Part shown: in pieces, positions 49,935 to 52,005 of the stretch
Layout of the letters: each line of letters starts with the position of its first letter
Position numbering within the stretch: the stretch's first letter is position 1
From: Escherichia phage Pu-Krd-SF3
Sequence record: PQ249397
Length of the DNA stretch: 64,000 nucleotides
Direction: 5' to 3' (one strand)
Notes under the pieces: model-generated
Told to the model about the DNA's origin: nothing
The model's input: only the letters and a program-made list of their open reading frames with translations
Database searches by the model: none
Translations under genes and position numbers: made by a program

Positions 49935-50921
49935 ATGAAAACTGTAGTTAAGTCTTATTTTGGTAGTCATCTTTATGGAACTTCTACCCCAGAATCTGAT
50001 GTAGATTTTAAAGAAATCTTTGTTCCTCCTGCTCGTGATATTCTTATTGGAAATGTTAAAGAGCACATGAGTAAAAACACTAAAGATGATATTGACCATG
50101 AACTATACAGTCTTAAATATTTCTTTAAATTAGCAGCAGATGGTGAAACTGTAGCATTGGATATGCTTCACACTCCACCTGAATTAGTGGTTAAATCTGA
50201 TTTGCCTGATGTATGGAAATTTATCCAAGACAATCGTTCACGGTTTTATACAACTAACATGAAATCCTATTTAGGATATGTCCGCAAGCAAGCTTCTAAA
50301 TACGGTGTCAAGGGTTCTCGTTTGGCCGCATTACGTGATGTATTGAAAGTAGTTAATCAAATCCCTGACCAGTGGGTTGATTACCAAGAAGACGGTTCCA
50401 TTAAGCAGCGTCGCACTAAAGTTGAAGATATTAAGCATCGTCTTCCAGAAAACGAGTTCTGTGAATGGGTGTTCCATAATCATGAGAAAACAGGCCCGCA
50501 AACGTTCTATACTGTGTTGGGTCGTAAATATCAGACTACACTTTCTCTTATTGAGCTTAAGCAGTCTTTGAATAAACTTGATGCTGAATATGGTGAACGC
50601 GCTCGTAAGGCCGAAGCCAATGAAGGTATTGACTGGAAAGCATTGAGTCATGCTTGTCGTGGTGGACTCCAGCTATTGGAAATTTACAAAACTGGTGACT
50701 TAGTCTATCCACTCCAAGACGCTCCATTTATTCTCGACGTGAAGTTGGGTAAGCATCCATTTAAAACTGTTCAAGAGTTTTTGGAAGATGTGGTCGATCA
50801 AGTAGAAGCAGCATCCATTGAAGCTTCTAAGAATGGTATGCAGCAAAAAGTAGACATGGGTTTCTGGGATGACTTCCTTGAGAGGGTTTATCTTGAAAAC
50901 CATCGAAGTTATTATAAATGA
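49935..50921 (+). CDS. Nucleotidyltransferase-fold protein
   Basis: ORF track 49899-50921 (TTG); from MKTVVKSYFGSHLYGTSTPESDVDF: GS-x9-SDVD is the minimal NTase signature. Confidence 0.5.
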   Translation: MKTVVKSYFGSHLYGTSTPESDVDFKEIFVPPARDILIGNVKEHMSKNTKDDIDHELYSLKYFFKLAADGETVALDMLHTPPELVVKSDLPDVWKFIQDNRSRFYTTNMKSYLGYVRKQASKYGVKGSRLAALRDVLKVVNQIPDQWVDYQEDGSIKQRRTKVEDIKHRLPENEFCEWVFHNHEKTGPQTFYTVLGRKYQTTLSLIELKQSLNKLDAEYGERARKAEANEGIDWKALSHACRGGLQLLEIYKTGDLVYPLQDAPFILDVKLGKHPFKTVQEFLEDVVDQVEAASIEASKNGMQQKVDMGFWDDFLERVYLENHRSYYK

Positions 50922-50923
50922 TA

Positions 50924-50948
50924 GGGAGCCTTCGGGCTCCCTTTTTTT
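50924..50948 (+). terminator. Rho-independent terminator (UUCG tetraloop hairpin + T7)
   Basis: gggagcc-ttcg-ggctccc followed by ttttttt. Confidence 0.75.
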
Positions 50949-50972
50949 ATTTCAAAATTTTTTCACAAAACG

Positions 50973-51005
50973 GTTTACAAGCATAAAGCTTTATGGTACT
51001 ATACA
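50973..51005 (+). promoter_or_regulatory. Early promoter (repeated cassette type)
   Basis: ttttcacaaaacggtttaca ... tatggtactatacaactatcaacta, near-identical to 35697-35760. Confidence 0.6.
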
Positions 51006-51036
51006 ACTATCAACTAATACGGATTTGGAGAATAAA

Positions 51037-52005
51037 ATGAAAACTGTAACTATCAATAAGGGTATCTACTTCGGTAAAGAAATCTCTGGAACTTTTGAGC
51101 TCTTAGGCGAATGGTTCCCAGATAATGCTCCGGTAGATGCACAAGGAGATGGTAAAGTTTTTGTTGAAATTGACGGTAAACGTCGCGGTGTTTGGGTTTA
51201 CAAATCAGATATTTCATATGATGGTGTAAAAGTTGAAGAAGTTAAAGAATCGTATGAAGATATGAAAACCCGCATTAATAAAAGATTTAACGTTATGGGA
51301 ATGATGACGAACGGTATTATTAATGGAAATATTCGTTCATTAATTATCTCTGGCGCAGCAGGTATTGGTAAAACGTATTCTTTAGATAAAGCTTTAAATA
51401 AAGCAAATGATATTGGATACATTGAATATAAAAGCATTAATGGTAAAATCTCTGGTATTGGTCTTTATGAGCAGCTTTGGAATAATCGTGAAGAGAATTC
51501 TGTCCTTTTGATTGATGATGTGGATGTTTTCTCTGATATGGACATTCTTAATCTTCTGAAAGCTGCTCTGGACACTGGAGAGACCCGTAAAGTCTGCTGG
51601 AGCACTGCATCTTCTTACTTAGAAGAAAAAGGCATTGACCGTGAGTTTGAATTTAAAGGAACGATTGTTTTTATCACAAACGTTGACATTGACCGCGAAT
51701 TAGACCGTGGTACTAAACTTGCTCCACACTTACAAGCATTAGTGTCCCGCTCAGTTTATTTGGATTTGGGTGTTCACACTAATGAAGAAATTATGGTCAG
51801 GGTTGAAGATGTTATTCTTTCAACTGACATGATGCAAAAGCGCGGTCTTTCTGATGAAGAAACTTATAAAGCATTATCATGGATGAAAGTTAATGTTAAT
51901 CGTTTACGCAATGTTTCACTGCGTACTGCTCTTTATCTTGCTGACTTTATTATGACCGACAAAAACGGTTGGGAAGAAATTGCTGAGGTTACTCTTCTGA
52001 AATAA
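51037..52005 (+). CDS. AAA+/P-loop ATPase
   Basis: ORF track 50869-52005; start at MKTVTINKG with GGAGAA RBS; Walker A GAAGIGKT, Walker B VLLIDDVD. Confidence 0.55.
   Translation: MKTVTINKGIYFGKEISGTFELLGEWFPDNAPVDAQGDGKVFVEIDGKRRGVWVYKSDISYDGVKVEEVKESYEDMKTRINKRFNVMGMMTNGIINGNIRSLIISGAAGIGKTYSLDKALNKANDIGYIEYKSINGKISGIGLYEQLWNNREENSVLLIDDVDVFSDMDILNLLKAALDTGETRKVCWSTASSYLEEKGIDREFEFKGTIVFITNVDIDRELDRGTKLAPHLQALVSRSVYLDLGVHTNEEIMVRVEDVILSTDMMQKRGLSDEETYKALSWMKVNVNRLRNVSLRTALYLADFIMTDKNGWEEIAEVTLLK

Follow-up and report, generated by a model that had tools for sequence, protein, structure and literature searches.

Two early genes of a T4-type phage, nrdC.11 and nrdC.10: a predicted RlaP-family nucleotidyltransferase and a AAA+ ATPase that probably act independently

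The window, i.e. the whole stretch of 64,000 nucleotides that was analysed (Escherichia phage Pu-Krd-SF3, sequence record PQ249397), is placed taxonomically in Tequatrovirus. The locus considered here comprises two genes on the same strand and the spacer between them, with the following features:

49935-50921, plus strand: ORF1, nrdC.11 orthologue, predicted RlaP-family (PF10127) Pol-beta nucleotidyltransferase (NTase), 328 aa and a stop codon
49962-50096, plus strand: codons of the NTase catalytic core (G10-S11, 49962-49967; D22-x-D24, 49998-50006; D54, 50094-50096)
50923-50949, plus strand: intrinsic terminator past nrdC.11 (8-bp GC-rich stem, UUCG loop, T run)
50974-51002, plus strand: predicted T4-early-type promoter for nrdC.10, a consensus match kept in T4 (TTTACA-17 nt-TACTAT with an upstream TG)
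51027-51030, plus strand: Shine-Dalgarno sequence GGAG, 6 nt 5' of the nrdC.10 ATG, read directly from the sequence
51037-52005, plus strand: ORF2, nrdC.10 orthologue, predicted AAA+ ATPase, 322 aa (N-terminal beta domain, residues 1-61; linker helix, 73-96; ATPase core, 100-245; helical lid, 249-320)
51352-51924, plus strand: AAA+ catalytic codons of ORF2 (Walker A G106-T113, 51352-51375; Walker B D160-D161, 51514-51519; sensor 1 N215, 51679-51681; candidate Arg finger R238, 51748-51750; candidate sensor 2 R296, 51922-51924)

Both ORF1 and ORF2 are real genes. Megablast with this stretch gave matches in 730 phage records; with tblastn, 1311 records proved to carry the ATPase and 1572 the NTase. 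Comparison with T4, which had been proposed in an earlier note on this DNA, identified the two as orthologues of T4 genes: ORF1 is 96% identical to NrdC.11, and ORF2 is 99% identical to NrdC.10 over 316 residues. The earlier note gave ORF1, whose N-terminus reads MKTVVKSYFGSHLYGTSTPESDVDF, a length of 329 aa; the gene stands, but the stop codon had been counted and the protein has 328 residues. The 'thioredoxin' labels that are widespread on nrdC.10 and nrdC.11 in GenBank are naming artefacts.

The spacer carries both signals that had been described from the sequence, a strong terminator and a consensus early promoter. The terminator hairpin (50923-50942) is composed of AGGGAGCC-TTCG-GGCTCCCT, with a T run downstream. 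It folds at -16.5 kcal/mol (z = -4.5), a value equalled by none of 200 shuffled sequences, and the T4 terminator is identical except for one T of the T run. The promoter is a consensus match. Since the promoter scan showed no overall enrichment (16 sites versus 14.9 expected from shuffles), its prediction is based on the near-identity of the spacer to that between nrdC.11 and nrdC.10 of T4.

By sequence and domain profile, ORF1 is a Pol-beta-superfamily nucleotidyltransferase of the RlaP family. It matches the Pfam RlaP profile (PF10127) with E = 1.5e-11 and 44.9 bits, above the gathering cut-off of 23, in an alignment that spans only residues 7-126 (profile positions 24-142 of 249), and phrog_388 ('nucleotidyltransferase') with E = 2e-134. 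A full-length bacterial relative (L192) likewise matches PF10127 (E = 6.8e-13). Of the 3732 cluster representatives in the homologue set, 706 reach E <= 1e-30, with conservation over the full length. The minimal NTase signature noticed earlier in ORF1 was borne out, as the protein contains the G-[GS] turn, the D-x-D motif and a third acidic residue. In 37 sequences of 35-54% identity G10, S11, D22, D24 and D54 are invariant, so that the catalytic acidic residues, lack of whose conservation would according to the earlier note refute its proposal, are conserved; D52 and D76 are kept in at least 90% of the same sequences. Either D54 or D76 is a candidate for the third metal ligand. This identity of the NTase is already known and is not new.

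The AF2 model of NrdC.11 (pLDDT 92.7) combines an N-terminal alpha/beta domain with a long C-terminal part made of helices, within which lies a beta-rich insert of ~55 residues (146-200). The allele found in the window has a unique deletion of 8 residues immediately before the catalytic D54, and the enzyme of this particular phage could be impaired. The fold check suggested in the earlier note (CCA-adding-like, Pol-beta-like or cGAS/DncV-like) indicated the Pol-beta type. CCA-adding enzymes and poly(A) polymerases gave no match in Pfam or NCBIfam and none in the top 50 fold matches, while the distantly related terminal uridylyltransferases (Cid1, TUT7, URT1) and CutA were found in Foldseek with a probability of about 0.1 or less. 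Searches of PDB sequences with both proteins and with profiles A1 and A2 gave nothing usable, no sequence-level relative of NrdC.11 being found there, PADLOC had no matches for either protein, and NCBIfam returned only sub-threshold matches to MntA and Hda.

Full-length bacterial relatives of the NTase (30-41% identity) are flanked by RNA-repair genes in 20 of 80 loci, with same-strand Hen1-Pnkp adjoining and RtcB, Ro60/TROVE or a T4-type PNK nearby; these neighbours were confirmed with Pfam (Pnkp PF16542, Hen1 PF12623, RtcB PF01139, TROVE/Ro60, HAD_PNKP). None of the 78 viral NTase loci has an RNA ligase or kinase within 6 kb, and there is none anywhere in the window. The phage NTase genes are instead accompanied by rI, tk, a macro-domain protein and small membrane proteins. 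The ligase and kinase genes of T4 sit elsewhere in its genome.

The biochemistry of the family dates from December 2025, when a bioRxiv preprint by Carruthers, Fatma & Huang (2025; PMC12776372) described two Pseudomonas enzymes, PfRlaP and PaRlaP, which lengthen RNA at its 3'-OH end by 1-2 NMPs, prefer Mn2+, do not extend DNA and accept dATP as a donor. The concern of the earlier note that the proteins might match well-characterised enzymes thus came half true, for the NTase family. T4 NrdC.11 is named in the preprint as a member of the RlaP family and falls into cluster 5, the assayed enzymes forming the separate cluster 1a; the functional test ends at aminoacylation, and the authors themselves caution that random nucleotide addition would yield mostly wrong tRNAs (PMC12776372). 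Phage RlaP proteins had been predicted to restore RloC-excised nucleotides ahead of ligation (PMC7824862). A viable genome-reduced T4 carries a deletion of nrdC.11-mobD.3 (PMC9825161).

ORF2 contains the Walker A (GAAGIGKT, residues 106-113) and Walker B (VLLIDDVD, residues 156-163) motifs at which the earlier note had identified a 322-aa ATPase, and it has all the other attributes of a AAA+ protein, i.e. sensor 1, a candidate Arg finger, a candidate sensor 2, an alpha-beta-alpha core and a helical lid. Both Walker motifs, N215, R238 and R296 are at least 95% conserved among 76 non-identical homologues, the most distant of which are about 30% identical. The placement of these residues relative to secondary structure was taken from the model, and the candidate roles of R238 (Arg finger) and R296 (sensor 2) were assigned from their position in it. 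NrdC.10 is therefore predicted to be an active AAA+ ATPase. A clamp loader of the gp44/RFC type was considered and rejected by the criteria of a family profile match and the clamp-loader-specific collar domain.

The earlier note regarded the two genes as a candidate host-takeover or counter-defence module. In a functional two-component system, the NTase would act on a substrate, e.g. a damaged tRNA or a ribonucleoprotein, that the ATPase remodels or delivers. Both are early-region genes located in a stretch with proven anti-defence genes, and they lie side by side in the same orientation in T4, T2, RB-type and Acinetobacter T4-like phages, altogether in 38 of the 78 viral NTase loci. However, this adjacency disappears beyond close relatives in both directions: only 4 of 81 ATPase loci contain both genes, the NTase being absent within +-6 kb (tblastn and HMM) from the other 77, which are divergent viral loci, and adjacency across divergent lineages, as expected of a conserved two-gene module, was not found. 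In loci that have both genes, the distance between them ranges from 112 to 2290 bp, frequently with ORFs inserted, and in one contig they lie ~36 kb apart (L136 and L005). Bacterial relatives of the NTase pair with RNA ligase and kinase genes, and the ATPase is found in none of their 80 loci. Counts by host name show that either gene occurs without the other, with 286 Klebsiella phages having the NTase versus 149 having the ATPase, and 59 versus 121 Vibrio phages. These observations, together with the terminator and separate promoter between the genes and the place of the distant ATPase genes in a replication/recombination block (see below), leave the module without support, and we consider it very unlikely. 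Coupling between the NTase and the ATPase is lacking; the range over which NrdC.10 is conserved greatly exceeds that of the NTase, and NrdC.10 probably works on its own. Of the module proposed earlier only the counter-defence part is plausible, for the NTase, and we advise against treating nrdC.10 and nrdC.11 as one module.

It was also considered whether NrdC.11 manipulates host immunity as a template-independent oligonucleotide/DNA synthase or a signal-making NTase of the HalB or CD-NTase kind. The best Foldseek matches in PDB are indeed HalB chains (9dbj, 9dbh), HalB of the Hailong anti-phage system makes protein-primed oligodeoxyadenylate, and the use of dATP by Pseudomonas RlaP would fit such an activity. 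However, these matches are weak (E about 3e-3, TM 0.25-0.4, ~145 columns) and cover the shared NTase core only, for which reason we rejected HalB-like activity as the main reading; kanamycin NTase, LinB and 3c18 score about equally. The nucleotide-signal option (cGAS/DncV-like) raised in the earlier note was not upheld, as no CD-NTase, cGAS, DncV or OAS appears among the top 50 Foldseek matches in PDB and ORF1 has no CD-NTase match in Pfam or PADLOC. The Pfam assignment to RlaP and the RNA-repair neighbours of the bacterial relatives argue for the other option named there, an enzyme modifying tRNA or nucleic acid, and the assayed RlaP halts after 1-2 additions and leaves DNA unextended. A synthase or signalling role for NrdC.11 therefore appears highly improbable.

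As for NrdC.10, its gene in distant T4-like phages forms part of a replication/recombination block in the order gp32-UvsX-UvsY-ATPase-UvsW; UvsW is located downstream in 42 of the 61 loci with enough flanking sequence. Of 56 such loci, 21 have UvsX or UvsY on the upstream side. The ATPase gene of Vibrio phage D533 is flanked on one side by the genes for the clamp, clamp loader, regA and dUTPase, and on the other by those for a DNA helicase (UvsW-like), RNase H, the gp55 late sigma factor and SbcD/SbcC-like gp47/gp46. In KVP40 its neighbours are nrdABC on one side and topoisomerase gp52 on the other. The block gp32-UvsX-UvsY-NrdC.10-UvsW is fixed in a large clade of uncultured T4-like phages; the nearest cultured match to the environmental ATPase clade is Pseudomonas phage PAC2 (41%), and no cyanophages are among the matches listed for it.

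We infer from this ancestral place that the ATPase may have a role in DNA transactions. NrdC.10 might then be a widely conserved but so far unrecognised AAA+ motor of the T4-like recombination/replication machinery, one that could, for instance, load or regulate UvsW, or cooperate with it, in branch migration or fork restart, and its place beside nrdC.11 in T4 a secondary rearrangement. This proposal is tentative and rather doubtful, and synteny in T4-like replication modules may reflect inheritance, not function. It is also conceivable, and in our opinion unlikely, that NrdC.10 serves anti-defence or host takeover, e.g. by disassembling or decoying a host immune complex, and not DNA metabolism. 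It has its own predicted early promoter, and it is missing from the published lists of T4 core and quasicore genes (Petrov 2010). In T4 it shares the nrdC region with nrdC.5, which acts against Dsr1 (PMC9391042), and is located near gp49.2, which acts against OLD (PMC13096335). On the other hand, the ATPase occurs in phages ranging from those of Escherichia to those of Vibrio, Aeromonas and Acinetobacter and to jumbo phages, its catalytic motifs are invariant down to about 30% identity, and it keeps its place beside UvsW, UvsX, UvsY, gp32 or clamp-loader genes. Genes for anti-defence tend to be patchy in distribution and to evolve fast. The negative PADLOC result also speaks against such a function. 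With its invariant motifs, its presence in more than 1300 phage genomes and its synteny with UvsW in distant relatives, nrdC.10 is a reasonable target for a knockout in T4.

Based on our observations, the locus probably contains two early genes of T4 type that act independently, one for an RlaP-family RNA 3'-NTase and one for a AAA+ ATPase; we infer both the in vivo substrate of NrdC.11 and any role of the ATPase. By analogy with the Pseudomonas enzymes, NrdC.11 would be a template-independent RNA 3'-nucleotidyltransferase. During infection it might refill tRNA anticodon loops that have been cut, and have lost a nucleotide, through a RloC-type nuclease of the host, whereupon the phage polynucleotide kinase and RNA ligases would reseal a full-length tRNA. 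It would thus be an accessory enzyme of counter-defence that the phage can do without on laboratory hosts, a role made plausible by its RlaP membership and the RNA-repair neighbours of its bacterial relatives, while NrdC.10 would act from its own promoter, apart from the NTase. If this is true, refilling by NrdC.11 completes the classic T4 tRNA repair (Pnk and Rnl1 against PrrC), and a direct genetic test is available in the best phage model. As the idea of refilling by NrdC.11 has already been published, the locus adds an orthologue, not a discovery.

Among known systems, RlaP shares with the window NTase the GS...DxD...D set and relatives embedded in RtcB, Pnkp-Hen1, PNK and Ro60 loci. In the PfRlaP crystal structure an N-terminal NTase domain and a C-terminal helical domain form a cleft, and the two parts of the NrdC.11 model are their likely counterparts. 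Unlike the assayed RlaP, the window protein belongs to cluster 5, not 1a, and matches the Pfam profile with its N-terminal half only; it also differs from the family in the beta insert at 146-200, the lack of an adjoining ligase in phages and the 8 residues missing before D54. HalB, kanamycin nucleotidyltransferase and LinB, the top Foldseek matches, have in common with NrdC.11 the Pol-beta core and a helical domain, but with E >= 3e-3 and TM <= 0.4, and their partners and genomic contexts are different. T4 NrdC.10 (phrog_1250), an uncharacterised AAA+ ATPase, shares the spacer, terminator and promoter of the window and differs from the window protein at the C-terminus in the T4 reference record. 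The ending conserved throughout the family is that of the window (…IAEVTLLK), and the T4 reference record appears, from this comparison, to be frameshifted there. Among AAA+ proteins, the close known systems are those with an insert before the sensor-1 strand, i.e. MCM, NorQ/CbbQ of the MoxR type, sigma-54 activators, RuvB and dynein/midasin.

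The window is a segment of a Tequatrovirus (T4-type) genome. In megablast, the interval 49935-52005 shared 100% identity with Escherichia phage Pu-Krd-SF4 and 95-99% with hundreds of T-even phages. Among the 730 records matched by this 2071-nt query, only PQ759884.1 exceeded 99% identity; its match to the window is perfect over 49935-52005, with a 1-nt indel near 49245. The two adjacent ORFs described in the earlier note were confirmed, and they correspond to NrdC.11 (96% identity, one 8-residue gap) and NrdC.10 (99% identity over 316 residues) of the T4 reference:

49935-50921 (+), ORF1 (nrdC.11), nucleotidyltransferase (NTase), 328 aa
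50923-50949, hairpin terminator between the ORFs: 8-bp GC-rich stem, UUCG loop, T run
50974-51002, promoter-like site TTTACA-17-TG-TACTAT, 3' of the hairpin and before nrdC.10
51037-52005 (+), ORF2 (nrdC.10), AAA+ ATPase, 322 aa

The folding energy of the hairpin is -16.5 kcal/mol (z = -4.5). The promoter call is based on the near identity of the spacer to that of T4 itself, as the whole promoter scan showed no enrichment over shuffled sequence. A second site of this type, with identical hexamers, lies at 52413-52441 (+), ahead of an nrdC.8-like ORF at 52470.

The NTase and the ATPase had been proposed as a candidate host-takeover or counter-defence module, and it is their distribution that speaks against a module. 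Apart from the record matching the window itself, 80 viral loci carrying ATPase homologues (30-78% identity) were compared. Of these, only the three closest relatives (L002-L004) had the NTase within 6 kb, with 1.1-1.2 kb and extra ORFs separating the two genes; it was absent within this distance from the other 77 loci (tblastn and HMM). The ATPase was present in 38 of the 78 viral NTase loci, always downstream (gaps of 112 to 2290 bp), and was almost always missing once NTase identity dropped under about 50%. All 80 bacterial NTase loci lacked it. One IMG/VR contig holds both genes roughly 36 kb apart. Among cultured-phage records, the counts differ by host (NTase 286 versus ATPase 149 in Klebsiella phages, 59 versus 121 in Vibrio phages), therefore each gene occurs without the other. 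Given these distributions, and the terminator and separate promoter between the genes, co-transcription or obligate co-function is unlikely.

PHROGs labels ORF1 a nucleotidyltransferase, and its Pfam profile match (RlaP, PF10127) is confined to the N-terminal half. An exhaustive profile-free search returned 3732 cluster representatives with full-length alignments, 706 of them at E <= 1e-30. Across 37 aligned members (35-54% identity), G10, S11, D22, D24 and D54 were invariant, D52 and D76 were almost invariant, and there were conserved C-terminal motifs (Y123, YG.R 219-222, DWK 233-235, H239, R242). As the catalytic residues are invariant, the NTase assignment withstands the check for lost catalytic acids. 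In the AF2 model, which is of high confidence (pLDDT 92.7), an alpha/beta NTase domain is joined to a C-terminal helical domain, and there is a beta-rich insert (~146-200). Foldseek searches of the PDB gave weak matches only, none below E = 1e-3, the best being Hailong HalB, kanamycin NTase, 3c18 and LinB. No cGAS, DncV or OAS protein and no CCA-adding enzyme appeared among the top 50 matches, and PADLOC returned no match; the option of a cGAS/DncV-like signalling enzyme thus found no backing in either search.

The nrdC.11 allele of the window lacks 24 nt in-frame at ~50081/50082, corresponding to residues NNTSSKNT of T4. The gap falls between two AAAAAYAC direct repeats, in a loop directly before the invariant D54, and the deletion is unique to this allele. 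Directly 5' of nrdC.11, overlapping its start by 17 nt, lies mobD (HNH homing endonuclease, 49171-49951, +), which is a pseudogene in the window. Relative to the intact MobD of phage RB3 (259 aa), a TGG->TAG change at 49396-49398 and one additional A in a poly-A tract near 49702 leave three ORF fragments:

49171-49398 (+), mobD fragment, the only one with a (weak) HNH Pfam match
49507-49719 (+), mobD fragment
49712-49951 (+), mobD fragment

The ORF at 48530-49096 (+), mobD.1 in RB3, matches Pfam T4_y05I_N and T4_y05I_C ('putative transcription factor').

We sampled 80 bacterial loci with full-length NTase relatives (29-53% identity, most 30-41%) and clustered the neighbouring genes. RNA-repair genes were found within 6 kb in 20 of them. 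In several loci (L181, L192, L199, L203 and L213), Hen1, Pnkp and the NTase follow one another on one strand, nearly spacer-free. Other loci had RtcB, Ro60/TROVE or a kinase-phosphatase of the T4 type. The assignments PNKP_ligase, Hen1_L, RtcB, TROVE and HAD_PNKP were confirmed with Pfam. The RNA-repair association from which the RlaP family (PF10127) takes its name holds for the clade that includes the phage protein. Together with family membership, these neighbours argue for the nucleic-acid-modifying NTase suggested in the earlier note.

It is established that T4 Pnk and Rnl1 repair PrrC-cut tRNA-Lys (cited in PMC12776372). Two Pseudomonas RlaPs add 1 or 2 NMPs onto RNA 3'-OH ends, favour the broken end of a cleaved-tRNA mimic, prefer Mn2+ and are inactive on DNA or protein (Carruthers, Fatma and Huang, bioRxiv December 2025; PMC12776372); the same preprint names T4 NrdC.11 as a family member (cluster 5 of its network). 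Phage RlaPs were predicted to refill, ahead of ligation, the nucleotides that RloC-type nucleases remove (Iyer et al. 2021; PMC7824862). Simple transfer of this function to the phage NTase is weakened by the half-length Pfam match, by the absence of a ligase near the NTase in all 78 viral loci, by the unique deletion beside D54, and because the chemistry comes from Pseudomonas enzymes and not from the phage protein. Of the proposed counter-defence module, the counter-defence part seems plausible for the NTase, but the module part does not stand.

The window also carries a tRNA cluster (ARAGORN):

32555-34015 (+), nine tRNA genes: Gln, Leu, Gly, Pro, Ser, Thr, Met(CAT), Tyr(GTA), Arg

T4 itself has eight tRNA genes and is not known to carry a tRNA-Tyr gene. 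tRNA-Tyr is the target of Septu, according to a 2026 paper on T6 (PMC13096335).

ORF2 belongs to phrog_1250 ('unknown function') and had no above-threshold Pfam match, with AAA_14, AAA_22, nSTAND3 and AAA_16 below threshold (E = 1e-3 to 1e-5). Its AF2 model (pLDDT 88.3) has four parts, and conservation was assessed in 76 non-identical homologues, down to about 30% identity with the window protein:

Residues 1-61, small five-stranded N-terminal domain
Residues 73-96, linker helix
Residues 100-245, AAA+ core with an insert (178-208) ahead of the sensor-1 strand
Residues 249-320, helical lid
Conserved in at least 95% of homologues: Walker A (G106, G109, G111, K112), Walker B (D160, D161, D163), the N172-D179 motif, insert residues R184 and W188, sensor 1 (T214, N215), the arginine-finger position (R238) and the sensor-2 position (R296)

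This is the pattern expected of an active enzyme under purifying selection. The T4 reference protein ends in ...IATGYSSEINS (NC_000866 54343-54400), whereas the window (51990-52005) and all 24 aligned homologues terminate in ...IAEVTLLK or a close variant. One extra base in the T4 record (GCTACGGGTTAC versus GCTGAGGTTAC) points to a frameshift, either in the reference sequence or in the strain.

In divergent loci, the ATPase lies inside a block of co-oriented genes whose make-up is strikingly constant: gp32, UvsX, a small acidic ORF, UvsY and 1-3 small ORFs precede it, and sometimes a 344-aa ORF, then a UvsW-type helicase, phrog_11279, phrog_11758 and phrog_11058 follow. Of the 61 loci with 3.5 kb or more of flanking sequence, 42 had UvsW downstream; UvsX or UvsY was upstream in 21 of 56. 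The block is carried, near locus position 6000, by the IMG/VR contigs L010-L081, which represent a large clade of T4-like phages that are uncultured; its 344-aa ORF had no family match, and the three phrog families lack an assigned function. In Vibrio phage D533, the clamp, clamp loader, regA and dUTPase genes lie on one side of the ATPase, and a DNA helicase (UvsW-like by position), RNase H, late sigma factor (gp55) and SbcD-like and SbcC-like nuclease subunits (gp47, gp46) follow it. The order in KVP40 is nrdA, nrdB, nrdC, vs.1, one ORF, nrdC.10 and topoisomerase gp52.

This replication/recombination neighbourhood indicates a role in DNA metabolism, which we treat as a lead and not as a demonstration, since T4-like replication modules generally keep their gene order. 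A more specific reading, in which NrdC.10 would be an AAA+ motor that acts with UvsW in recombination or replication, we consider rather unlikely. The DNA-metabolism role competes with the possibility that NrdC.10 is an anti-defence factor, as the T4 nrdC region includes the anti-Dsr1 gene nrdC.5 (PMC9391042) and lies near the anti-OLD gene gp49.2 (PMC13096335); however, the breadth of nrdC.10 and its invariant motifs suit an anti-defence function less well.

Many GenBank phage records label homologues of both proteins 'thioredoxin', although Pfam found no thioredoxin match in either; the name seems to have spread from the nrdC.x labels of the locus. The RlaP concept took shape between 2016 and 2021. 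The domain assignments are older, as nrdC.10 was listed as AAA and nrdC.11 as a COG3541 NTase by Nolan et al. 2006 (PMC1524935), and a genome-reduced T4 with an nrdC.11-mobD.3 deletion is viable (PMC9825161). With RlaP biochemistry published and T4 NrdC.11 named in December 2025 (PMC12776372), the NTase finding is already known, and the ATPase is a known gene of uncharacterised function. What the present analysis adds is modest: the two genes do not form a module, the ATPase occupies a fixed position beside UvsW in a large uncultured T4-like clade, and the NrdC.11 clade has RNA-repair neighbourhoods in common with other RlaPs.
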